From NCBI GenBank assembly GCA_028872875.1, contig JAGWOC010000001.1, positions 49,983 through 113,982 of the forward strand: 64,000 bases of DNA. The letters run 5' to 3'. Origin of the DNA: Chloroflexota bacterium. GTDB lineage: Bacteria > Chloroflexota > Dehalococcoidia > DSTF01 > JACRBR01. Position numbers and translations under genes: made by a program. The number at the start of each line of letters is the position of its first letter. The first letter of the stretch is position 1. The notes below the pieces were generated by a model that saw nothing but the letters and a program-made list of their open reading frames with translations, was not told the origin of the DNA and searched no databases. This document shows positions 29,199 through 53,125 of the stretch, one piece after another.

Positions 29199-29372
29199 GA
29201 CCCGAGCCTACGCCGCGACGGCCCGTCCGTCGAGGCGCCGCGTCAAGCACGGCAAGCGCCGACACGAAGATGATGCGCGCCCGCGTCAAGTTGACAGTCC
29301 GTTGGCAGCAGTGCCCTCCCCACACAGAGCAGGGCTCCCGGTGTCCGGCCAGCGATCGCATATGATGCGAGC

Positions 29373-29795
29373 ATGCGCTTCCTCATCGGTTCCGACGCGG
29401 CGGGCGAGGCGCCTGACGCTATCGCGCAGGCTCTGCGCGACCGCGGGCACGAAGTGACGCGCTGCGGGGCGCTCGCGGGCGCCGCTGCCGGCTGGGCGGA
29501 CATCGCCCGCGACGTCGCGTCGCGGGTCGCCCGCGGCGAAGCCGACCAGGGGGTGCTGTTCTGCTGGACGGGCACCGGCGTCTCGATCGCCGCCAACAAG
29601 GTGCCGGGGATCCGGGCCGCGCTCTGCTCCGACGCCGAGACGGCTCGCGGCGCCCGCGCCTGGAACGACGCCAACATCCTCTGCCTGAGCCTGCGCACGG
29701 CGACGCCCGCGCTGGCGCGCGAGATCATCTCCGCCTGGCTCGCCGCCACGCCCGACGGCACGGAGGCGGAGCAGATCGCCCGCATCGAGCGCTGA
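29373..29795 (+). CDS. rpiB: ribose-5-phosphate isomerase B (RpiB/LacA/LacB family)
   Basis: MRFLIGSDAAGEAP...GVLFCWTGTGVSIAANKVPGIRAALCSDAETARGARAWNDANILCL is the RpiB signature with the catalytic Cys in CWTGTG. Confidence 0.85.
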   Translation: MRFLIGSDAAGEAPDAIAQALRDRGHEVTRCGALAGAAAGWADIARDVASRVARGEADQGVLFCWTGTGVSIAANKVPGIRAALCSDAETARGARAWNDANILCLSLRTATPALAREIISAWLAATPDGTEAEQIARIER

Positions 29796-29908
29796 CCCGC
29801 CTTCGCCTCCCACGCCAACGTCTGACCTAGCGTTGATCGGCCCCGCAGCACCCTCCCGCGTGCCCGCGCCTACTGGCCCGACGCGATCGGCCCCGCTACG
29901 CTGCCCGC

Positions 29909-30547
29909 ATGGAGATCACCTGGCTTGGACACGCCTGCTTCCGCATCCGCGCGAAGGAAGCGACCGTCATCACCGACCCCTGCGACAGGTCGACGGGCTA
30001 CAGCCTCGGCCGCCCGTCCGCGGACATCGTCACCGTCAGCATCCACGACCGCGCGCATGACTACGCCGAGGGCGTCGCCGGCTCCCCGCGCGTGATCGAC
30101 GGCCCCGGCGAGTTCGAGATCGCGCACGCGTCGATCGTCGGCATCACCACGTACCGCGGCAAGGGACGGCAGGTCGAGTCCGGGCGCAACGTGGCGTACG
30201 TCATCGAGCTCGAGGACGTGCGCATCGGCCATCTCGGGGGCATCGGCCACGTGCCGACGTCGGACCAGCTCGAGGAGATGAGCAACGTCGATGTGCTGCT
30301 CGTGCCGGTGGGCGGCGGCGAGTCGCTCGACGCCCCGCCCGCGGCCGAGACGGTCAGCCTGATCGAGCCGAAGCTCGTGATCCCGATGCACTACAAGACG
30401 GACGTCGAGAAGACGAAGCTCGACCCTGTCGACCGCTTCCTGAAGGAGATGGGCGCCGCGGCGACCCAGCCCCAGGCCAAACTCTCCGTCACCCGCAGCT
30501 CGCTGCCCGGCGAGACGCAGGTGCTGGTGCTCGAGGTCAAGCGCTAG
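29909..30547 (+). CDS. MBL-fold metallo-hydrolase (UPF0173-type)
   Basis: MEITWLGHACFRIRAKEATVITDP...IHDRAHDYAEG...LLVPVGGGESLD is the UPF0173 metal-dependent hydrolase pattern. Confidence 0.7.
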   Translation: MEITWLGHACFRIRAKEATVITDPCDRSTGYSLGRPSADIVTVSIHDRAHDYAEGVAGSPRVIDGPGEFEIAHASIVGITTYRGKGRQVESGRNVAYVIELEDVRIGHLGGIGHVPTSDQLEEMSNVDVLLVPVGGGESLDAPPAAETVSLIEPKLVIPMHYKTDVEKTKLDPVDRFLKEMGAAATQPQAKLSVTRSSLPGETQVLVLEVKR

Positions 30548-30607: not shown

Positions 30608-31111
30608 TCAGTGCCCAACACCGCCGGCGCCCGCCGCCGGCGCCTGCCGGCCGCCCGGTTGCACAGCCTGCCCCGAGGCGGGCTCCATGCGCTGGCTCGC
30701 GGAGGATCCTGCGCAGCGGGGGCATACGCCGTAGAAGTCGAGCCGTTGCCCCATGACCTGAAAGCCGCTCGCCCTGGTCAACGTCTCTCGCAGGCTGGCG
30801 ACGGCCCCATCCTCGTCGATCCTGGCATCCGTGATACTGCTGCACTTGACGCAGATGAGGTTAGCGTGCAGCAGAGGGTTTGCGTCGTAGCGGGTACCGA
30901 GGCGAAAGTGGAGTGGCTGTACCAAACCCTTTTCGGACAGGACGTTCAGCGTGTTGTACACGGTCGCTCGCGTGATGTGCGGTACGTGCTGCCTGACACG
31001 CTCATACACGTCTTGAGCGGATGGATGATCGGTTGAGTTGGCAAGCACTTCTGCTACAGCCAGCCGCTGTGCGGTCACCCTGATACCCCGCTGCCTCAAC
31101 GTTGCAATCAT
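30608..31111 (-). CDS. Fur family transcriptional regulator (PerR/FurA-like; sits downstream of katG)
   Basis: TAQRLAVAEVLANSTDHPSAQDVYERVRQHVPHITRATVYNTLNVLSEKGLV is a winged-helix region. CVKCSS...CPRC are the two CxxC structural-Zn pairs. Confidence 0.85.
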   Translation of the reverse strand: MIATLRQRGIRVTAQRLAVAEVLANSTDHPSAQDVYERVRQHVPHITRATVYNTLNVLSEKGLVQPLHFRLGTRYDANPLLHANLICVKCSSITDARIDEDGAVASLRETLTRASGFQVMGQRLDFYGVCPRCAGSSASQRMEPASGQAVQPGGRQAPAAGAGGVGH

Positions 31112-31189
31112 GATCCCTCACCTGCACGCAGCGCACCGCCCGCGGCCGCCCTGCGGCGCGGTACGACCGTTACGAGCGCCCCGCGCAGA

Positions 31190-33355
<2,166 letters not shown>

Positions 33356-33478
33356 TTACCATGTGCGTGCCGACAGCCGCTTCTCAGTCCCACCGACCCT
33401 CTAGCGCTCCGCCAACTTGATGGCCATTGAACTCGCTGATGGCGAAAGCTGCGCGATGTCGGACTCGGCCTCCGCGCC

Positions 33479-33518
33479 GAACTCCCCTTCCCCCGGAGGG
33501 AAGGGGCCGGGGGTTAGG
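33479..33518. repeat. conserved palindromic element, copy B: CTCCCCTTCCCCC-gga-GGGAAGGGGCCGGGGGTTAGGTCGGCG
   Basis: Inverted repeat CCCCTTCCC (33481-33489) / GGGAAGGGG (33495-33503). Same architecture as 14901-14940. It lies in the katG 5' region, between the PerR box and the katG start. Confidence 0.8.
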
Positions 33519-33549
33519 TCGGCGGGGCCCGCTTGCCGGCTGGCCTTGT

Positions 33550-33564
33550 TTAGAATCATTATAA
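33550..33564. promoter_or_regulatory. PerR/Fur-box-like operator TTAGAATCATTATAA upstream of katG
   Basis: 14 of 15 positions match the B. subtilis PerR-box consensus TTATAATNATTATAA. It sits in an AT-rich patch of the divergent katG / giant-surface-protein intergenic region. Confidence 0.6.
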
Positions 33565-33740
33565 AGGACTGCCATCGCTTGTCAAGCTGTGTGTGCCGGG
33601 ACACCATCGCATGCGTTACGTAATCTTTTCAGCGCGTCAACGGTTGCTGGCCTACAACCATTGCATTAGTCCGCTCAAAGAGTAGGATCGTCCCACCATC
33701 GTCGGAATGCTCTCACGGCATGGGGCCGAAACGAGGCGGC

Positions 33741-36700
33741 ATGTTCTCAGCACGCGCGTGTGCGGGGGCCCTTGCCCTCCTGGCCATCGGCGTCATCGTG
33801 GCGGGTGGCTCGCCCGGGCCCCTGCAGGGCGCCCGGCTGCCGGCCGCTGTTGCGGTAGCGCCGGCGGCGACGCCCGCCATACCCATGGTGGCTGTCGGCG
33901 GCCGGCACACCTGTGCGCTCAACAGCAACGGCGCCGTGCGCTGCTGGGGCCGCAACGCCGACGGCGAGCTCGGCGACGGCACGACGATCAGCCGGCAGCG
34001 CCCGGCCCTCGTCGCCGGCCTGAGCAGCGGCGTCACGGCGATCGCCGCGGGCTTCTCGCACACCTGTGCGCTGACCACCGGCGGCGGCGTCAAGTGCTGG
34101 GGCAGCAACGCCGACGGCGAGCTGGGCGACTTCACGCAGGTGAACCGATCGATGCCGGTCGACGTGATCAACCTAACGACCGGCGTCGTCGCCATCTCCG
34201 CCGGCGACCGCCACACGTGCGCGCTGCTGGCGGCCGGCGGCATGCGCTGCTGGGGCTACAACGTCTACGGCGAGGTCGGCAACGGCACCAGCGGCAACCT
34301 CTGGCTCGGCGCCGTCGACGTCTGCACGAGCGGCTCCGGCATTGGCTGCGCCGGCGGCGCGCCGCTCACCGGCATCGCATCGATGTCGGCCGGCGGCATC
34401 AACACCTGCGCCGTGACGACGGCCGGCGCCCTGAAGTGCTGGGGCGGCAACTACAGCGGCCAGTTGGGCCTCGGCATCCTGTCGGACAGCCCGCTGCCGC
34501 CCGGGGGCGTCTGTCCTACGTCCCCGGACGCCAACGCCACGTGCATCTCCCTTCCGACCGACGTCCCGAGCCTGCAGAGCGGGGTCGCGGCGGTCAACGC
34601 GGGCCAGACCGCGTGCGCGCTGACCACGGCCGGCGGCGTGATGTGCTGGGGGCTCAACAATGTGGGGGAGACCGGCAGTGGCATCGTGTCGCCCTGCAAC
34701 CCGAAGGTGCCGCCGCAGCCATACGTGGCGTGCGATCGCCCGCAGCCCGACCCGGCCGCTGTGAGCGGCCTGAGCAGCGGCGTCGCCGCGATCTCGGGCG
34801 GCTGCGCACTGCTGTTGACCGGCGGGGTGAAATGCTGGGGAGAAAACCTGTTCGGCCAGATCGGCGACGGCACGACAACCGTCCGGACGACGCCGGTGGG
34901 CGTGTTGGGCCTGGGGTCCGGCGTCGCATCGATCGGTCCGGGCCAAGACGCCGTGCACCACTGCGTCACGATGGCCGCGGGCGGCCTGAAGTGCTGGGGG
35001 TCGAACAGTTGGGGCCAGTTGGGCGCGACATCTGCCGACACTTGCTTTCTCGGCTTTGCCTGCAGCCTCGTGCCGATCGACGTGCAGCAGTGCACGATCT
35101 GCGTGCTCGACATGTCTTTCGAGCACCAGGTCTATCCCGACGAGGCCAACTGGGCGCCGGTCGCCGCGCAAGGGACGGTCGATGGCAACCAGGTGCGCGT
35201 CAAGGCGACGCTCCGGAACCAGGCGGGCACCGATCAGCCGGTCACGGTCGAGTTCCGTGACGCGGACACGGGTACGCTCCTGCCCGGCGGCTCGATCGAT
35301 GGCACGGTACCGGCGTCGGGCGAGTTACCCGTCACCTACGTCTGGAATACAGACGGTTTTGCCTGGGACGGCGGCGCCGCGCGCAGCCCCCGGCACGTCC
35401 GCGTCACCGTCCTGCAGGGCGCGACGACGCAGGACACCGACATCCGCGGCATCAAGATCGTCCCGAAGCCGGTCGTGCTGGTGCACGGCTGGAACAGCAA
35501 TTTCGGCACCTGGGCGTCATACCAGGGGTTCCTGACGTCGGTCAGCCCGGACTGGAAGGCGTTTGCTGTCGGCGACGGCCAGGCGCCCGGCGTCATGAAC
35601 ACGGGCTCGATGTCCCATCCCTTCACGCTGACCAACACCATCGACCAGAACGCCATCGAGATGTCGCAGTACGTGCACGGCGTCCGCCAACAGATGAACG
35701 CATGGCACGTCGATGTGGTCGCGCACTCCATGGGCGGGCTGATCTCGCGGGACTACATCCAGTACTGGATGCCGCCGGACGCGTATGCGCGTCCCGTCAT
35801 CGACCATCTCGTGATGCTCGGCACGCCGAACCAGGGCACCTCGTGCGCCGACCTCGGGGCGGCCATCCTTGGGCCGCTGGGAGCCGGCGCCTTCCTGTTT
35901 CCGGCGACCCTGCAACTCACCAAGACCTACCTCGCGATCTTCAACCAGCAGGTGACGAACCGCCGCGGCGTGAAGTTCTCGATTTCCGCAGGCGACCCGA
36001 TCCCGATCACTTGCCTCGAAGGTGCGGGCGACGAGATCGTGCCGTACCGAAGCGCCCTCATGCTCGACCCGCTGCCCGGGACGCCGATCACCGACTCGGA
36101 GTCGCGCTCGATCCTGCACCACCACATGCCGGGCGATCCGGGCCAGTTCAACCAGTTCGTCAAGCCGCGGCTCACCGGCGTCCTGCCAGCGCCCGCGGCA
36201 GCGTCGGCCGCTGGTGCGCACGCGCCCGTACGAGCTGTCGCCGCCGTTGCACCGCCGCCGGTCGTCGCGCCGCAGATCCTGGCGGGAGTCGGTGTCGAGG
36301 TCGCGGCCGGGGGGATGGCGGACGTGCCCTTCACGGTGACCGATGGCACGCGCATCGGTGTGACGCTGATCGCCGCGTCCTCGGTGACGACAGAGCTGCA
36401 CAATCCAGTGGGTACGGTCGCGGCCTCGGCCGCGGCGGGCAGCGACGCCGCGCAGGCGGGCCTGCGCACGCTCACGGTCGATACCCCCAGCGCCGGCGTC
36501 TGGACGCTGCACCTCGTGAACACGGATGGCGCCGCGCCGGCAGACGTCGCCGGGTCGGCGTGGGTCGACGGCAGCGCGGTGCAGCTCGTCCTCGCGCCGC
36601 CCACACCGGCTCCGGACGGCTCAGTCCCGCTCACCGCCACGCTCACCAACGGGGGCAGCGCGCTGGCGGGCGCCACCATCACGGCCATGCTCACGGGCGC

Positions 36701-39700
36701 CGACGGCCTGCACGGCCCGGCGACTCTGCTCGATGACGGGCTGCACGGCGACGGCGCGGCCGGCGACGGGATCTACGGCGGCACGACGGCCGCGCTAGCC
36801 CCCGGGCTTTACAGCGTCGCGGTACAGGCCACCGCCCCCGGCGTCTCGCGATTCACAACCGGCGCGGTCGAGATCGCGACCGCGGCCGCCACGCCCACAC
36901 CGACGGCCAGCGCGACCGCCAGCAGCACGCCGACAAGCGCCGCCACCGCCACACCCACGCCGACGGACACGCCCACCGCTGTGCCGACCGCGACCGACAC
37001 GCCGGCCGTCACCAGCACCGCGACGGCGACGCCAACGGCGACCGCGACGCCCTCGCTCGTGTACAACGTGAACAGCACCGCCGACGTCGTCGATGCGCAC
37101 CCCGGCGACGGCGTCTGCGCCACCGGGGCCGGCGAGTGCACGCTCCGTGCCGCGGTCATGGAGGCCAACGTCCAGTCGATCCGCGCCGGCATGCCGACGA
37201 TCAACCTCCCGGCGGGCGTCTACACGCTGACTCGCGGCCCGGCCGACGACATCCGCTTCGGGTCGGACTTCGTTGATTCGTCGGGCGACCTGGATCAGCG
37301 GAGCATGGCCATCCACGGCGCCGGTCCCTCCGCCACGATCATCGACGGCGGCCGCATCGACCGGATCTTCGAGGTGTTCGGTGACCACGTCACGATCAGC
37401 GGCGTCACGCTCCGCAACGGCGATGCGAAGCTTGCGGACGGGACGCAGACGGTCGGCGACGCGATCTTCGTCTACGGCCCCGGGAGTGCGAAGCTGTCGC
37501 TCAGCGACGCCGTCATCAGCGGCAACGGCGCCGGCGATGCCGCGATCGCGGTCAACGGCGCGCTCACGATCACCGACAGCACCATCGAGGGGAACGCCGG
37601 CGGCGGCATCCGCGTCGGGAACGGTTCGCTCTCCCTGCTGCGCAGCAGCGTCAAGGGCAACGCCGGCGCCGGCATCCGCACCGAGAATCAGTACGGCTTC
37701 GGGACCGCGACCGTCACGGACAGCACGATCAGCGGCAACCACCTCGGTGGTGACGGCGCGGGCGTCTGGAACAGCGGCGCGCTGACGCTCCTCCGCAGCA
37801 CCGTCAGCGGCAACACCGCCGGTGGCCGCGGCGGCGGCATCGCGAACTTTGGCACGGCGACGATCACCGACAGCACGATCAGCAGCAACGCCGCCGAGGT
37901 GGACGGTGGCGGCATCTTCAACGACTTCCCGCGCGCCGCGCACCTGACGCTCACGAACGTCACCGTCGCGCACAACCTCGCGGATAGCGACCAGACGGGC
38001 TCGGGCGACGGCGGCGGCGTCTACAATGGCGGCATCGGCACCGTTACGCTCACCAACACGCTCCTCGCCGCGAACACCGATGCGGGCGGAGAGGCGCCGG
38101 ACTGCGGCGGCTCGCTCGTGTCCGGCGGGCACAACCTCCTCCAGTCCTCAGCCAGCTGCGCGCTCTCGCCGCAGGCCGGCGACCGCATCGGCGTCACGGC
38201 CGCGCTCGGCCCGCTCGCCGACAACGGCGGCCCGACGTTCACCCACGCCCTCCTCGCGGGCAGCCCGGCGATCGACGCCGCCGACCCGCTGATGTGTGGC
38301 GCGACGGACCAGCGCAGCCGAGTCCGCCCCGTCGATGGCAACGCCGACGGCACCCCCGTGTGCGACATCGGCGCCGTCGAGTTCGACCCTGCGGACGGGC
38401 CGCCGGCGTCGCTGGCGCCGCCCCCGCCCGCACCGGCGCCGCTCGTCGCGTTCACCGTCGACAGCTTCGCCGACGGCGTCGACGCCGCGCCCGGCAACGG
38501 CGTCTGCGCGACGGCCGGCGGCGCCTGCACGTTGCGCGCCGCCGTCATGGAGGCGAACAAGCTCTCCGGCACGAACGTCATCAGGCTCGGCGCCGGCACC
38601 TACCAGCTCTCGATCCCGACGCTGGAGGTCTACGCCCCGGACGCCTCGCGGGGCGACCTTGACGTGTCCGAAGGGCTCGTCATCGAAGGCACGGGCGCGG
38701 CGGCGACCGTCATCGACGGTGGAGGGCTCGACGGCGTCATCAACAGCGGCGGGGTGCTGGAGCTCAAGGGACTGACGATCCGCAACGGCGCGCCGTCGCA
38801 CACCCCGGGCGGCGCCAGCGTCGGCGGCGGCGGCGTGGGCGCGCTCGTCCTGCTGCTCCAGGATGTGGACGCGACGGGGAACCAGGGCACCGCGGTCGGC
38901 GGCGGCTGGATCGTCGCACGCCGCATCCACGTCACTTCGAATAGCATCGGATCCGCGGTATCTACAGGGTACGGCTCGCTGTTCCTGGCCGACAGCATCG
39001 TCAGCGGCACGGCCTTCGGCGGCGGCATCACGACGAGCGTCCCGGCCGTGGTCCTCCGCTCCACCGTCACGGGAAACGCCCGGAGCGGCATCGACATCCA
39101 GGACGCGTCGGCCGACATCATCGACAGCACGATCAGCGGCAACCACGCCGACACGAGTGGTGGCGGCGTCGAGATTGGGTACGGCGACGTGCGCATCAGC
39201 GGCACGACCATCGACGGCAACAGCAGCACCGGCAGCGGCGGCGGCATCGACAACAACGGCACCCTCGTGCTCACCAACAGCACGATCAGCGGCAACAGCG
39301 CCAGCCAGTGGGGCGGCGGCCTGATCAACAACAATCTTGGCACGGCGACACTGCGCAACGTGACGATCACCGCCAACACGGCGCAAAGCGGCGGCAGCGC
39401 CTTCGGCGATGGCGGAGGCATCTACCAGAGCAGCATCCACGCGATCACCCTCGAAAACACGATCATTGCCGGCAACACCGACGCCGGCGGCCAGGCGCCC
39501 GACTGCTCGGGCACGCTCCCGTCGCCGTCCTACAACCTGATCGGCGACATGAGCGGCTGCACGATCGTCGGCACCAGCACGGCGAACATCCTCGGTCGGG
39601 CCGCCCGCCTCGGCCCGCTGCAGGACAACGGCGGGCCGACGCTGACGCACGCGCTGCTCGCCGGCAGCCCCGCCATCGACCAGGGCGGCGACGCCCTGTG

Positions 39701-40448
39701 CGCGCCGACGGACCAGCGCGGCGTCCGCCGCCCGATCGACGGCGACGGCGACGGCGTGGCGGCGTGCGACATCGGCGCCTTCGAGGCCCCAGCCGTCGCC
39801 GGCGCACCGACGGCAACACCCACGAGCACGCCAACCGCCACGCCAACCGCCACGGCGACGGACACGCCGGTGGCTACCAGCACGCCCACGTCCACCCTGA
39901 CGCCGCCCGCGACCAGCACCAGCACGCCGCCCGCCTCCGCAACCAGCACCGCGACGGATACACCGGTGCCGACCACGACCGCGGCACCCACGGCGACCGC
40001 CACAACCACGGCCGTGCACACCGCGACGGCCACAGCTACCTCCATCGCGACGAGCACGCCCACGCCGCCCGCCACCGCGACGGCCGTGCCCCCGGCGAAG
40101 GCGACAGCAAGCAGCACGTCCACCGTGACGGCGACGGCGACGCCCACGCCGGCGGGCTCGGCGGCACCGATCTACTCTGTCGCCACGGCGACCCCGTCAT
40201 CCGCTCCGGCGCCGAGCCCGTCGCCATCCGGCGCCACGCCCCGGGCGACCCCTACGCTGGTCAGTAGCGCGCTCGCCGCCACGGCACAACGCGGCGGCTC
40301 GGCGCCGGTTGCCGGTCTACCCAACACCGGCGCAGCACCGCCCAGGGCGTCCGCCGGGCCGCGCACATGGCTTATGGCGGCTGGCGTGCTCGCCCTCATC
40401 GCGCTCGCGGCCGCACACGCCGCGTCACGCGGGCGGCGCCGCCGCTAG
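33741..40448 (+). CDS. giant LPXTG-anchored multidomain surface protein: signal peptide, RCC1 propeller, beta-sandwich, LipA-type lipase domain, 2x CSLREA/beta-helix/choice-of-anchor-Q-like modules, T/P-rich linkers, LPNTG sorting signal
   Basis: Single ORF 33720..40448. ATG 33741 is preferred (GAGG 5 nt upstream; signal peptide MFSARACAGALALLAIGVIVAGG). RCC1-type repeats with recurring HTCAL...CWG.N..GELG. Lipase-like block PKPVVLVHGW...VDVVAHSMGGLISRDY (AHSMGG at 35721-35738). Two modules begin GDGVCAT..C.LRAAVMEAN (37138-37170 and 38526-38558) and end GGPT.THALLAGSPAID...TDQR...RP.DG..DG...CDIGA(V/F)E (38361-38384 and 39766-39789). C-terminus LPNTG (40317-40331) + AAGVLALIALAAAHAA + RGRRRR. 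Confidence 0.85.
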   Translation: MFSARACAGALALLAIGVIVAGGSPGPLQGARLPAAVAVAPAATPAIPMVAVGGRHTCALNSNGAVRCWGRNADGELGDGTTISRQRPALVAGLSSGVTAIAAGFSHTCALTTGGGVKCWGSNADGELGDFTQVNRSMPVDVINLTTGVVAISAGDRHTCALLAAGGMRCWGYNVYGEVGNGTSGNLWLGAVDVCTSGSGIGCAGGAPLTGIASMSAGGINTCAVTTAGALKCWGGNYSGQLGLGILSDSPLPPGGVCPTSPDANATCISLPTDVPSLQSGVAAVNAGQTACALTTAGGVMCWGLNNVGETGSGIVSPCNPKVPPQPYVACDRPQPDPAAVSGLSSGVAAISGGCALLLTGGVKCWGENLFGQIGDGTTTVRTTPVGVLGLGSGVASIGPGQDAVHHCVTMAAGGLKCWGSNSWGQLGATSADTCFLGFACSLVPIDVQQCTICVLDMSFEHQVYPDEANWAPVAAQGTVDGNQVRVKATLRNQAGTDQPVTVEFRDADTGTLLPGGSIDGTVPASGELPVTYVWNTDGFAWDGGAARSPRHVRVTVLQGATTQDTDIRGIKIVPKPVVLVHGWNSNFGTWASYQGFLTSVSPDWKAFAVGDGQAPGVMNTGSMSHPFTLTNTIDQNAIEMSQYVHGVRQQMNAWHVDVVAHSMGGLISRDYIQYWMPPDAYARPVIDHLVMLGTPNQGTSCADLGAAILGPLGAGAFLFPATLQLTKTYLAIFNQQVTNRRGVKFSISAGDPIPITCLEGAGDEIVPYRSALMLDPLPGTPITDSESRSILHHHMPGDPGQFNQFVKPRLTGVLPAPAAASAAGAHAPVRAVAAVAPPPVVAPQILAGVGVEVAAGGMADVPFTVTDGTRIGVTLIAASSVTTELHNPVGTVAASAAAGSDAAQAGLRTLTVDTPSAGVWTLHLVNTDGAAPADVAGSAWVDGSAVQLVLAPPTPAPDGSVPLTATLTNGGSALAGATITAMLTGADGLHGPATLLDDGLHGDGAAGDGIYGGTTAALAPGLYSVAVQATAPGVSRFTTGAVEIATAAATPTPTASATASSTPTSAATATPTPTDTPTAVPTATDTPAVTSTATATPTATATPSLVYNVNSTADVVDAHPGDGVCATGAGECTLRAAVMEANVQSIRAGMPTINLPAGVYTLTRGPADDIRFGSDFVDSSGDLDQRSMAIHGAGPSATIIDGGRIDRIFEVFGDHVTISGVTLRNGDAKLADGTQTVGDAIFVYGPGSAKLSLSDAVISGNGAGDAAIAVNGALTITDSTIEGNAGGGIRVGNGSLSLLRSSVKGNAGAGIRTENQYGFGTATVTDSTISGNHLGGDGAGVWNSGALTLLRSTVSGNTAGGRGGGIANFGTATITDSTISSNAAEVDGGGIFNDFPRAAHLTLTNVTVAHNLADSDQTGSGDGGGVYNGGIGTVTLTNTLLAANTDAGGEAPDCGGSLVSGGHNLLQSSASCALSPQAGDRIGVTAALGPLADNGGPTFTHALLAGSPAIDAADPLMCGATDQRSRVRPVDGNADGTPVCDIGAVEFDPADGPPASLAPPPPAPAPLVAFTVDSFADGVDAAPGNGVCATAGGACTLRAAVMEANKLSGTNVIRLGAGTYQLSIPTLEVYAPDASRGDLDVSEGLVIEGTGAAATVIDGGGLDGVINSGGVLELKGLTIRNGAPSHTPGGASVGGGGVGALVLLLQDVDATGNQGTAVGGGWIVARRIHVTSNSIGSAVSTGYGSLFLADSIVSGTAFGGGITTSVPAVVLRSTVTGNARSGIDIQDASADIIDSTISGNHADTSGGGVEIGYGDVRISGTTIDGNSSTGSGGGIDNNGTLVLTNSTISGNSASQWGGGLINNNLGTATLRNVTITANTAQSGGSAFGDGGGIYQSSIHAITLENTIIAGNTDAGGQAPDCSGTLPSPSYNLIGDMSGCTIVGTSTANILGRAARLGPLQDNGGPTLTHALLAGSPAIDQGGDALCAPTDQRGVRRPIDGDGDGVAACDIGAFEAPAVAGAPTATPTSTPTATPTATATDTPVATSTPTSTLTPPATSTSTPPASATSTATDTPVPTTTAAPTATATTTAVHTATATATSIATSTPTPPATATAVPPAKATASSTSTVTATATPTPAGSAAPIYSVATATPSSAPAPSPSPSGATPRATPTLVSSALAATAQRGGSAPVAGLPNTGAAPPRASAGPRTWLMAAGVLALIALAAAHAASRGRRRR

Positions 40449-50333: not shown

Positions 50334-51866
50334 ATGCCCGAGTCCCGTGCGGCCCGCGTGCGTATCACCCGCAGGCGCTTCCTCGGCGGCGCGGCGGCGA
50401 CGGCCGCCGTGCTCACCGCCGGCGGCGCGTCTGCCGTCGTCCTGCGCGATCGCGGCGGGGGCAGCGCGCAGCGTACGGCGATCAAGCCCGGCGCGCTGCC
50501 GCGGACGACGCCGGGCACGCCGTCGAACCCCCTGGCCACGGCCGATCTGCGCCTCCGTCACCTGCTACGGCGCACGACGTTCGCCGCACTCCCTGCTGAC
50601 ATCCAGCGCTTCTCGGGTCAGCCGCTCGACCACGTCGTCGACCAGTTGCTCGACACGGCCGCCGTCGATGACAGCGCCGCCGAGGCGAAGCTGGCCTCGT
50701 TCGCGCTGGACCTCACGAAGCCGCAGGACATCATCTCCTGGTGGCTCGCGCGCATGACGCTCACCCGGCGGCCGATGCTCGAGCGGATGACGCTGTTCTG
50801 GCACGGCCTGCTGACCAGCGGCCTGGCGAAGACCGGCGCAAAGGGCGCGCCGCTGCTGCTGAACCAGAACAACCTCTTCCGCGCGCACGCGTTCGACAAG
50901 CTCGACGTGCTGCTCAAGGCCGTCGTGCGCGACCCCGCGATGATGCTCTGGCTCGACATCGAGACGAGCCGCAAGGGCCACCCCAACGAGAACTATCCGC
51001 GCGAGCTCATGGAGCTGTTCACCCTGGGCGTGGGAAACTACACCGAGCAAGATGTGCGCGAGTCGGCGCGCGCGCACACCGGCTACTCGCTGAACCGCGC
51101 CGACTACACGTTCGTGTTCCGCCCGGCGCTGCACGATAACGGCCAGAAGACGTTCCTGGGCCAGACAGGCAACTGGGACGCGGACAGCATCGTGGACATC
51201 ATCCTCAAACAGCCCGCCGCCGGCGACCACTTCGCCCGCAAGCTGTTCGAGTTCTTCGCCTATCCGGCGCCGGACGCGGCGACGCTCAAGCCGATCGCCG
51301 GCGTGGCGCGCAGCAGCGGCTTCGACACGAGGGCCGTCGTGCGTGCGGTGCTGACGTCGGACGCGTTCTACGCGCCACAGGCCTATCGGGCGATCGTCAA
51401 GAGCCCGACGGACTACGTCGTCGGCGCGGCACGGCTGCTCGGCGTGGAGAGCAACGGGCGCGCGCTGGCGGGTGCGAGCAGGCTGATGGGGCAGGTGCTC
51501 TTCAACCCGCCGAACGTCGCCGGCTGGCCGGGCGGGCGTACCTGGATCGGCACCAGCACGTGGTTCGCGCGCGTGAACTTCGCCGCGGCGCTGATCAACG
51601 CCAGCGCCGCGAAGCGCGGGACGCAGACGCAGGCCGCCGGGGCCGCGCCGCTCTTCGCCGCGCCGCCGGCCTCGGCCGACGACGCGATCGTGCAGGCCGC
51701 GACGCTCACCGTCGACGGGCGCATCAGCGACGCCGTGCGGTCGACCCTGAAGGACTACCTCGAGACGGGCGGCGGCTTCGCGACACTCCCGCCCGCCCAG
51801 CGGGACGAGCGCCTGCGCGGCCTGGGTGCCTTGCTGCTCGCGTCCCCGGAGTACCAGCTCGCCTGA
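50334..51866 (+). CDS. DUF1800 family protein with Tat signal
   Basis: GGAGGA lies 4 nt before ATG 50334. MPESRAARVRITRRRFLGGAAATAAVLTAGGA is a twin-arginine signal. WWLARMTLTRRPMLERMTLFWHGLLTS is the DUF1800-like core. It is paired with a downstream DUF1501 gene, as is typical. Confidence 0.6.
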   Translation: MPESRAARVRITRRRFLGGAAATAAVLTAGGASAVVLRDRGGGSAQRTAIKPGALPRTTPGTPSNPLATADLRLRHLLRRTTFAALPADIQRFSGQPLDHVVDQLLDTAAVDDSAAEAKLASFALDLTKPQDIISWWLARMTLTRRPMLERMTLFWHGLLTSGLAKTGAKGAPLLLNQNNLFRAHAFDKLDVLLKAVVRDPAMMLWLDIETSRKGHPNENYPRELMELFTLGVGNYTEQDVRESARAHTGYSLNRADYTFVFRPALHDNGQKTFLGQTGNWDADSIVDIILKQPAAGDHFARKLFEFFAYPAPDAATLKPIAGVARSSGFDTRAVVRAVLTSDAFYAPQAYRAIVKSPTDYVVGAARLLGVESNGRALAGASRLMGQVLFNPPNVAGWPGGRTWIGTSTWFARVNFAAALINASAAKRGTQTQAAGAAPLFAAPPASADDAIVQAATLTVDGRISDAVRSTLKDYLETGGGFATLPPAQRDERLRGLGALLLASPEYQLA

Positions 51867-51877
51867 GGAGGCGCACG

Positions 51878-53125
51878 ATGATCACGAGGCGCGATTTCGT
51901 GAAGAAGGGCGTGGCGCTGGTCACGCTGGGAAGCATGCACGCGATGCTGCCGCCGGTGTTCAAGGGCGCGTTCGCGATCCGCGCGTCGGACGCCGAAGCG
52001 GACACGCTGCCGGCGCGCACGCTCGTCATCCTGCAGTTCGCGGGCGGCAACGACGGGTTGAACACCGTCGTGCCCTATCGCGACCCCGCCTACGCGAAGG
52101 CGCGACCGTCGATCGGCGTCAAGGCGGACGCCGTGTTGGCGCTCGATGACCATGTCGGCCTGCACCCGAAGCTCGCGGGCCTGAAGAAGCTGTGGGACAG
52201 CAAGAAGCTCGCGGTGGTGCAGGGTGTCGGCTACCCGGACCCGAACCTCTCGCACTTCCAGTCCATGCTGATCTGGGAGAACGCCGGCCGGCAGGCGGCA
52301 AACGGCGAAGGGTGGCTCGCGGGCTACCTCGACCGCCTCGAGGCGGAGGAGCACGACCCGCTGCACGGTTTCAACGTCGGGCAGTTCGTGGCGCCGGAGC
52401 TGTACGCGGCCAACGCGCCCACTGTCGCCGCCCCGAGCGCAAACGCGTACGGCTTCCAGCGCCTGGCCCCGGACGAGGCGGAGGCGCGCCGGCGCCAGAC
52501 CGCGCTGCTGAAGATGTACGAGCAGTTCCCGAAGGACACGCCGTACGCCGCGCTGCTCGAAAGCACGGCCGGCGACGCCGTCTCCAGCTCGCAGGCGGTC
52601 GACGCGGCCGCGACCGCGCACACCCCCACCGTGGCATACCCGGAGACCTCGCTCGCGAGCGGGCTCAAGCTCGTGTCGCAGGTGATCGCCAGCGGGGCGA
52701 AGCTGCGCGTCGCGCACGTGACGCTCGGCGGCTTCGACACGCACTCCGGCCAGCAGCCGGAGCAGGAGAAGCTGCTCGGCGACGTCGGCGACGCGCTCGC
52801 CGCCTTCTATGCGGACCTCGCGTCGTACGGCAAGGACGGCGACGTGCTGACGATGACCTGGTCCGAGTTCGGCCGCCGCGTGCAGGAGAACGCGAGCCAG
52901 GGCACCGATCACGGCACCGCCGCGCCGATGTTCCTCGTCGGCGGCAGCGTCAAGGGCGGGCTGTACGGCGAGGCGCCGTCGCTGACGAGCCTCGATAACG
53001 GCAACCTGAAGTTCACGACGGACTTCCGTTCGGTGTACGCCACGCTGCTCGAACAGTGGTGCGGCGCCCCCGCCGATGCCATCCTCGGCGCCCACTACCC
53101 GCAGATCGGCGGGCTCGTGGCGTAG
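51878..53125 (+). CDS. DUF1501 family protein with Tat signal (sulfatase-like fold)
   Basis: GAGGAGG lies 6 nt before ATG 51878. MITRRDFVKKGVALVTLGS is a Tat signal. LVILQFAGGNDGLNTVVPY...GGFDTHSGQ...QGTDHGTAAPMFLVGG are DUF1501 signatures. Confidence 0.65.
   Translation: MITRRDFVKKGVALVTLGSMHAMLPPVFKGAFAIRASDAEADTLPARTLVILQFAGGNDGLNTVVPYRDPAYAKARPSIGVKADAVLALDDHVGLHPKLAGLKKLWDSKKLAVVQGVGYPDPNLSHFQSMLIWENAGRQAANGEGWLAGYLDRLEAEEHDPLHGFNVGQFVAPELYAANAPTVAAPSANAYGFQRLAPDEAEARRRQTALLKMYEQFPKDTPYAALLESTAGDAVSSSQAVDAAATAHTPTVAYPETSLASGLKLVSQVIASGAKLRVAHVTLGGFDTHSGQQPEQEKLLGDVGDALAAFYADLASYGKDGDVLTMTWSEFGRRVQENASQGTDHGTAAPMFLVGGSVKGGLYGEAPSLTSLDNGNLKFTTDFRSVYATLLEQWCGAPADAILGAHYPQIGGLVA

Follow-up and report, generated by a model that had tools for sequence, protein, structure and literature searches.

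A predicted PerR-type operator over the katG promoter of an uncultured Chloroflexota bacterium

Catalase-peroxidase genes stand beside genes for redox regulators of the Fur family in mycobacteria (furA-katG) and in Streptomyces (furS-cpeB and furA-catC), and in each case the regulator and the enzyme belong to one autoregulated unit. The Fur box of Bacillus subtilis is TGATAATNATTATCA. The consensus for the PerR box of the same species has been given as TTATAATnATTATAA (PMC11631912), and the ligands of the regulatory site of B. subtilis PerR include His37, Asp85, His91, His93 and Asp104 (PMC4866751). Two residues are regarded as canonical for PerR, an Asp rather than Fur's Glu at position 104 in the metal site and an Asn rather than Fur's Arg in the recognition helix, although both are also found in Irr proteins (PMC8638967).

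The locus described here lies in a 64-kb window (the whole stretch of DNA that was analysed) from an uncultured, Dehalococcoidia-like member of the Chloroflexota, and consists of katG, a Fur-family regulator gene behind it and a palindrome over the predicted promoter in front. The reading we favour, and hold to be probable, is that a PerR-type repressor blocks the katG promoter, autoregulates its own gene and is relieved by peroxide.

The palindrome, the predicted katG promoter and the probable transcription unit

The site at 33550-33564 is a 15-bp inverted repeat of 7-1-7 architecture that reads TTAGAATCATTATAA on the plus strand and TTATAATGATTCTAA on the minus (katG) strand; it is annotated, with no strand assigned, as a predicted operator on the grounds of its PerR-box match, the shuffled controls and its matrix score. 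Against the B. subtilis PerR box (TTATAATNATTATAA) it matches at 13 of the 14 specified positions, the sole mismatch being G for T at position 4. The preliminary description had counted 14 matches in 15; its near-consensus site stands, with the count corrected. Within the 64-kb window this is the only site, on either strand, with three or fewer mismatches to the PerR box, and none of 100 dinucleotide-preserving shuffles of the window yielded any such site. The box differs at one position from the PerR consensus, at three from the B. subtilis Fur consensus and at five from that of Zur, the latter two consensus sequences reportedly being those of Fuangthong and Helmann 2003. Scored with a palindromic matrix built from related loci (described below), from whose training set it was absent, the window box reaches 22.9 bits and is the only match in the window at or above 8 bits; a search for a second operator found no other match at that level. 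The AT-rich patch that had been remarked upon in the divergent region is borne out, G+C falling locally to about 49-51% around the box in a window of 70.2% G+C. The box is contained in the 394-bp spacer between the divergent genes.

A predicted sigma-70 promoter, TTGACA-16-TATAAT, lies on the minus strand from 33585 down to 33558, with its -35 hexamer at 33580-33585 and, after a 16-nt spacer, its -10 hexamer at 33558-33563. It matches at 12 of 12 hexamer positions and is the only such promoter on either strand of the 64 kb, where our own scan found three promoter sites of 10/12 or better; it is also the only promoter-like site in the divergent spacer. On the katG strand the spacer reads cagcTTGACAagcgatggcagtccttTATAATgattctaaac. 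Read in the same direction, the left half of the box contains the -10 hexamer and the right half covers the expected transcription start, which would lie near 33551 because of the position of that hexamer. The box thus overlaps the -10 hexamer and the start site of a katG promoter that is predicted, not mapped. As to whether it overlaps the promoters of the two divergent genes, a question raised earlier, the overlap is with the predicted katG -10 and no plus-strand promoter overlaps it. A repressor dimer on the promoter is the classical Fur-family repressor arrangement.

The coincidence with the -10 hexamer could also be turned against an operator. TATAAT supplies 6 of the 14 specified box positions, so that one half of the box is simply a -10 hexamer, and the 15-mer might resemble a PerR box by chance, as an A+T-rich -10 and start region to which no Fur-family protein binds. 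The positions outside the hexamer argue otherwise, since 7 of the 8 specified there match too, an outcome whose probability, by our own binomial estimate, is about 4e-4 even if 25% per base is assumed. The comparison with related genomes, given in the next section, bears on the same point.

The predicted 5' leader, of about 226 nt (33326-33551, minus strand), would extend from the start near 33551, as placed by the -10 hexamer, to the katG ATG. It contains a perfect, G+C-rich hairpin of 9 bp (CCCCTTCCC-N5-GGGAAGGGG, 33484-33506), and a second inverted repeat, CCCCCGG/CCGGGGG, overlaps it (33484-33513). The hairpin is not conserved in relatives, the fold of the leader (238 nt) was no more stable than that of shuffled sequences (z = -0.31), and an Rfam scan of 33250-33800 with E values up to 1 returned noise only and no family; a riboswitch or structured leader was rejected on the strength of the fold statistic. 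No second promoter was found in the leader. The sequences in front of katG in the window and in one relative (L001) could be aligned no further than the ribosome-binding site.

katG (31190-33325, minus strand) is preceded by an AGGAGAG ribosome-binding site and encodes a full-length bifunctional catalase-peroxidase of 711 aa (PF00141), which scores 1284 bits with the NCBIfam catalase/peroxidase model NF011635 (cut-off 981) and 1155 bits with TIGR00198. As had been described, a Fur-family gene lies downstream of katG on the same strand; it starts 78 nt past the katG stop, and a search of the intervening spacer (31112-31189, minus strand) for a promoter or terminator found neither. This gene (30608-31111, minus strand) has its own ribosome-binding site and encodes the PerR-like repressor MDE3094445.1, of 167 aa (PF01475). 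The genes that follow, an MBL-fold gene (29909-30547) and rpiB (29373-29795), converge on the plus strand, so the unit would end at the regulator gene, and a Pfam scan of the minus-strand ORFs past the regulator gene (29243-30391) gave no matches. From the absence of a promoter or terminator in the spacer and from the convergent genes downstream, we infer that katG and the regulator gene are co-transcribed as a bicistronic unit, in which case the box would autoregulate the repressor too.

On the other side of the spacer is the plus-strand gene at 33720-40448, whose product of 2242 aa carries RCC1 repeats and a lipase-like domain. Its features are a signal-peptide-like N-terminus, a beta-propeller of the RCC1-like kind, a DUF7379/lipase-like domain and a long remainder that is uncharacterised. 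The preliminary description had suggested, with a hedge, that the box might also control this divergent surface-protein gene, and a shared operator repressing both genes would be compatible with the other readings. In its favour, the box does lie in the shared 394-bp spacer, and TAGAAT (33551-33556) could serve as a plus-strand -10 hexamer. Neither the promoter scan nor our own inspection, however, found a plus-strand promoter with an acceptable -35 overlapping the box, and the ATG of the RCC1-repeat gene is 156 nt downstream of it. Nor is this gene a neighbour of katG in relatives, where the gene upstream of katG is of the RF-1 domain, DUF2180 or DinB-like kind and lies on the same strand as katG. 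Control of the RCC1-repeat gene by the box is thus very improbable in our judgement, and that part of the earlier proposal is not upheld.

The palindrome in related genomes

A profile scan with one genome per species gave 80 loci (here numbered with the prefix L), all from Dehalococcoidia/SAR202 metagenome-assembled genomes (MAGs) and amounting to 927 kb, each covering about 6 kb on either side of a regulator gene. Where block shuffles preserving local composition predict 0.5 sites with two or fewer mismatches to the B. subtilis consensus, the 80 loci contain 13; for one mismatch at most, 6 were found and 0 expected. Each of the 13 falls within the promoter region in front of an operon encoding a regulator homologue. 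A palindromic matrix iterated on the upstream regions of DUF1800 operons gave TTAKAATSATTMTAA, which keeps the PerR-specific T-A at positions 2-3. The Dehalococcoidia/SAR202 lineage has G or T at position 4. With this matrix, 31 of 48 upstream regions of DUF1800 operons score above 10 bits, and across the 80 loci the matches that reach 12 bits fall mostly at regulator-operon promoters, with about five elsewhere. More than 25 promoters of regulator-encoding operons carry near-identical 15-mers; the box of L043 is identical to that of the window, and L015 and L041 also carry the box.

The boxes overlap or abut the -10 hexamers of promoters that match at 10-12 of 12 positions, and they do so in three registers. 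In one (TAGACA-18-TATAAT) the box covers the spacer and the -10 hexamer, in another (TTGACA-17-TATyAT) it follows closely after the -10 hexamer, and in the third, which is that of the window, it lies over the hexamer. The three registers indicate that the palindrome is conserved independently of the -10 hexamer. A chance resemblance would have some footing in the three closest relatives, which have no full palindrome (see below), but it is hard to reconcile with an identical 15-mer in L043, with near-identical ones at more than 25 promoters, including registers that do not coincide with the -10 hexamer, and with 13 sites where 0.5 were expected in the 80 loci; we therefore judge it very unlikely. 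Taken by itself, a function of the window box as an operator is highly likely.

Linkage of the regulator gene to katG takes three forms and is seen, apart from the window, at no fewer than six distinct loci. In L001, L084/L094, L095 and L081/L082/L097 katG again comes first and the regulator second; the contrast drawn earlier with the mycobacterial furA-katG order holds for the window and likewise for L001, L081, L084 and L095. In L081/L097, where the regulator is 71% identical, the promoter is TTGACT-16-TATACT, and the box, TTATACTGATTCTAA, is placed relative to it just as in the window; the L081 box scores 17.7 bits and is followed by DUF2180, katG and the regulator gene. In L003 and L004 (regulator 56-57% identical) katG and the regulator gene are divergent, and the boxes in the spacers score 17.5 and 14.7 bits.

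The three closest relatives (L001, L084/L094 and L095) have regulators 82-85% identical to that of the window with the same recognition helix, but a 7-1-7 palindrome is absent from their katG promoters, where only half-sites were found. Their promoter is TTGACA-18-TAAAGT, around which lie two direct half-sites, ATTCTAA and GTTCTAA, with a distance of 17 nt between them (located by sequence comparison at L001:3440-3500, L084:2440-2500 and L095:418-480, with no strand assigned); the highest scores obtained with the matrix are 9.2, below 7 and 11.8 bits. Either the operator has decayed in this sub-lineage or another arrangement of half-sites is used. These relatives are the main evidence against a simple story of a conserved operator.

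Two further features of the katG-linked loci may be recorded. A small cysteine-rich DUF2180 ORF (48-64 aa) recurs beside the regulator homologue (L081:2398-2544, L085:1667-1861, L091:3495-3674 and L102:3334-3510), and in L081 it separates katG from the promoter that bears the box; no such ORF was found in the leader or the rest of the window. In L103 (834-2013), a distant metagenomic relative, the order is of the mycobacterial type, with the gene for a more distant Fur-family homologue (40% identical) directly preceding a katG of the same orientation.

Most members of the subfamily are encoded not beside peroxide-defence genes but in DUF1800-DUF1501-NHL operons of unknown function. About 55 of the 80 loci have an operon of DUF1800, DUF1501, an NHL beta-propeller and the regulator, in that order (for example L043:2037-6438), preceded by the PerR-type palindrome at a strong sigma-70-like promoter. 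The full DUF1800-DUF1501-NHL operon was not found in the window. A distant DUF1800/DUF1501 pair is present at 50580-53119 (plus strand), 34-35% identical to the pair of L043 and with no PerR-type box nearby.

In the 23 loci that have neither DUF1800 nor katG, clustering of the neighbours gave mixed contexts and no common peroxide gene. Neighbours in this group include a thioredoxin-reductase-like gene, a rhodanese, a STAND-TPR gene and MscS. Genes for a thioredoxin-reductase-like flavoprotein and a CoA-binding-domain protein precede the regulator homologue in L026, L040, L041, L044 and L076, which have no DUF1800, and in L041 a box, TTGGAATTATTATAA, is directly upstream of the regulator gene. 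One MAG (CBDFHM01) contributes two loci, L012 and L027, and so has two paralogues of the Fur subfamily, one in a DUF1800 operon and one elsewhere, which implies that the katG-linked and the DUF1800-linked regulators may be distinct paralogues and not orthologues.

We put forward, tentatively and as a possibility that falls short of probable, that the Chloroflexota have a PerR-like subfamily of their own marked by the invariant change of His to Asn in the sensing site, whose main autoregulated target in most Dehalococcoidia/SAR202 genomes is the DUF1800-DUF1501-NHL-regulator operon, under the same palindrome, and not a catalase, with the link to katG in the window a lineage-specific rewiring.

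The regulator and its probable signal

MDE3094445.1, which the NCBI record names 'transcriptional repressor' from a Chloroflexota MAG, has a full-length Fur-family domain (PF01475, E 1.2e-24). The two CxxC pairs noted in the preliminary description are C87-x-x-C90 and C130-x-x-C133; all four cysteines are invariant in 34 homologues, and from this sequence conservation alone they are predicted to form a structural Zn(Cys)4 site. In sequence searches of the PDB the best match was B. subtilis PerR (2fe3, E 2.8e-23), followed by Streptococcus pyogenes PerR (4i7h), while the actinobacterial Fur-family proteins 3eyy, 2o03 and 3mwm scored below the Firmicutes PerR proteins. The top NCBIfam model was the PerR equivalog NF052545, at 104.1 bits and under its cut-off of 180; next came the Bacillus Fur model with 85 bits and another PerR model with 84. 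Across the subfamily the PerR model ranked first for 34 of 34 members, every score being under the cut-off, and the Bacillus Fur model ranked second or third. With Irr models the regulator scores just 45-46 bits. The AlphaFold model (pLDDT 85.8) has the Fur fold and 2fe3 as its top Foldseek match, with Fur and Mur structures close behind PerR; the fold cannot separate the subfamilies.

Alignment to 2fe3 places H29, D76, H82 and D95 at the positions of His37, Asp85, His91 and Asp104. H29, H82, N84 and D95 are invariant in the subfamily, whereas a few members have Glu instead of Asp at position 76. The His93 ligand of B. subtilis PerR is replaced by Asn84 throughout the subfamily, whose motif PHAN(L/V)xC has His-Ala-Asn in place of the His91-Tyr-His93 of B. 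subtilis. S. pyogenes PerR also aligns with Asn at the His93 position, so that the change is compatible with at least one accepted PerR. Both canonical PerR residues are present, as D95 and as N53 (in ATVYNTL); Irr proteins share them, but the regulator has both CxxC pairs. Judged by these sequence features the regulator resembles PerR yet is a divergent, lineage-specific branch, which lacks one defining ligand and fails the curated cut-offs.

These departures from PerR would also fit a real operator served by a metal sensor, Fur- or Mur-like and responsive to iron or manganese, through which katG would be tuned to metal status. An Asn, an oxygen-donor ligand, instead of His93 throughout the subfamily, scores below every curated PerR cut-off with the Bacillus Fur model second or third, Mur and Fur structures beside PerR in Foldseek, and the occurrence of most homologues in DUF1800-DUF1501-NHL operons without a known peroxide role all lean that way. 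Yet the metal site has Asp and not the Fur-typical Glu, the DNA helix has Asn and not Fur's Arg, and S. pyogenes PerR carries Asn at the same position as the subfamily. The box, moreover, is closer to the PerR consensus (one mismatch) than to those of Fur (three) or Zur (five), and the regulator is linked to katG in three arrangements at six or more distinct loci besides the window. On balance we consider a metal sensor unlikely.

Peroxide is the likelier signal, a view to which the PerR-type residues, the PerR-type box and the repeated linkage to katG in three arrangements point. The preliminary description had proposed a peroxide-responsive repression of katG. Repression stands as the best reading, through the promoter overlap, the likeness to PerR and the recurrence of the palindrome at promoters of regulator operons, whereas the peroxide signal is an extrapolation, tempered by the Asn for His93 and the sub-cut-off scores.

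In the PerR-type switch that we favour, the metal-loaded, dimeric Fur-family protein encoded at 30608-31111 would bind the 7-1-7 repeat; we take MDE3094445.1 itself to be the protein that binds. Seated over the -10 hexamer and the start site, the repressor would keep RNA polymerase off a promoter that drives a bicistronic katG-perR-like transcript, and the regulator would thereby be autoregulated. H2O2 would inactivate the repressor, presumably through metal-catalysed oxidation as in B. subtilis PerR, and the very strong promoter, once freed, would fire to supply catalase-peroxidase together with fresh repressor, by which the switch would be reset.

Significance and comparison with known systems

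The proposed peroxide-stress switch is of an ordinary kind, with a textbook mechanism that will not surprise a specialist. What the locus offers is a testable model of peroxide defence for uncultured, high-G+C Chloroflexota, in which operator, promoter, repressor and target are all specified, and the lineage-specific matrix TTAKAATSATTMTAA is usable for predicting regulons in complete Dehalococcoidia/SAR202 genomes. Our literature searches found no description of PerR regulation in Chloroflexota or SAR202, none of DUF1800/DUF1501 linked to a Fur- or PerR-family regulator, and nothing relevant on a Fur-family regulator downstream of katG.

The more interesting by-product is the subfamily-wide change of His to Asn, together with the DUF1800-DUF1501-NHL operon in whose company the regulator is found in most related genomes. 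As the commonest partner of the regulator, this operon provides a functional lead for two large unknown families. If the regulator senses peroxide or the balance of Mn and Fe, the DUF1800/DUF1501 pair would belong to an oxidative-stress or metal response; if true, this would concern some of the most abundant deep-ocean bacteria, and the katG-linked arrangement of the window would be a lineage-specific rewiring of a DUF1800/DUF1501 regulon.

Set beside the B. subtilis Fur box, the palindrome of the window has the same 7-1-7 architecture and AAT-N-ATT core, but T and A at positions 2 and 14, where the Fur box has G and C. The likeness to the mycobacterial and Streptomyces operons is that a Fur-family regulator gene and a catalase-peroxidase gene share one unit; the differences are that katG comes first and the regulator second here, that a 7-1-7 PerR-type palindrome lies over the -10 hexamer, and that, among PDB entries, Firmicutes PerR is closer to the regulator than the Fur-family proteins of actinobacteria are. 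S. pyogenes PerR (4i7h) shares the His-x-Asn motif, being HVN where the window protein has HAN and B. subtilis HYH, but it has an extra His two residues upstream (HQHVN), where the subfamily described here has Pro, Leu or Ser.

The closest overall correspondence is with B. subtilis PerR and its Per boxes at katA, mrgA and ahpC. In both systems a 7-1-7 operator (predicted in the window, as is the promoter) lies over the core promoter of a peroxide-defence gene. Both have a Fur-family repressor, with a Cys4 zinc site (predicted in the window protein), equivalents of H37, D85, H91 and D104, and Asn in the recognition helix. The systems differ in the host, which here is an uncultured, Dehalococcoidia-like member of the Chloroflexota, in the target, which is the bifunctional KatG and not the monofunctional KatA, and in the position of the regulator gene, which here lies behind its target and is probably co-transcribed with it. 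They differ further in the Asn for His93, in G/T at position 4 of the box and in PerR scores that fall below the cut-off here.
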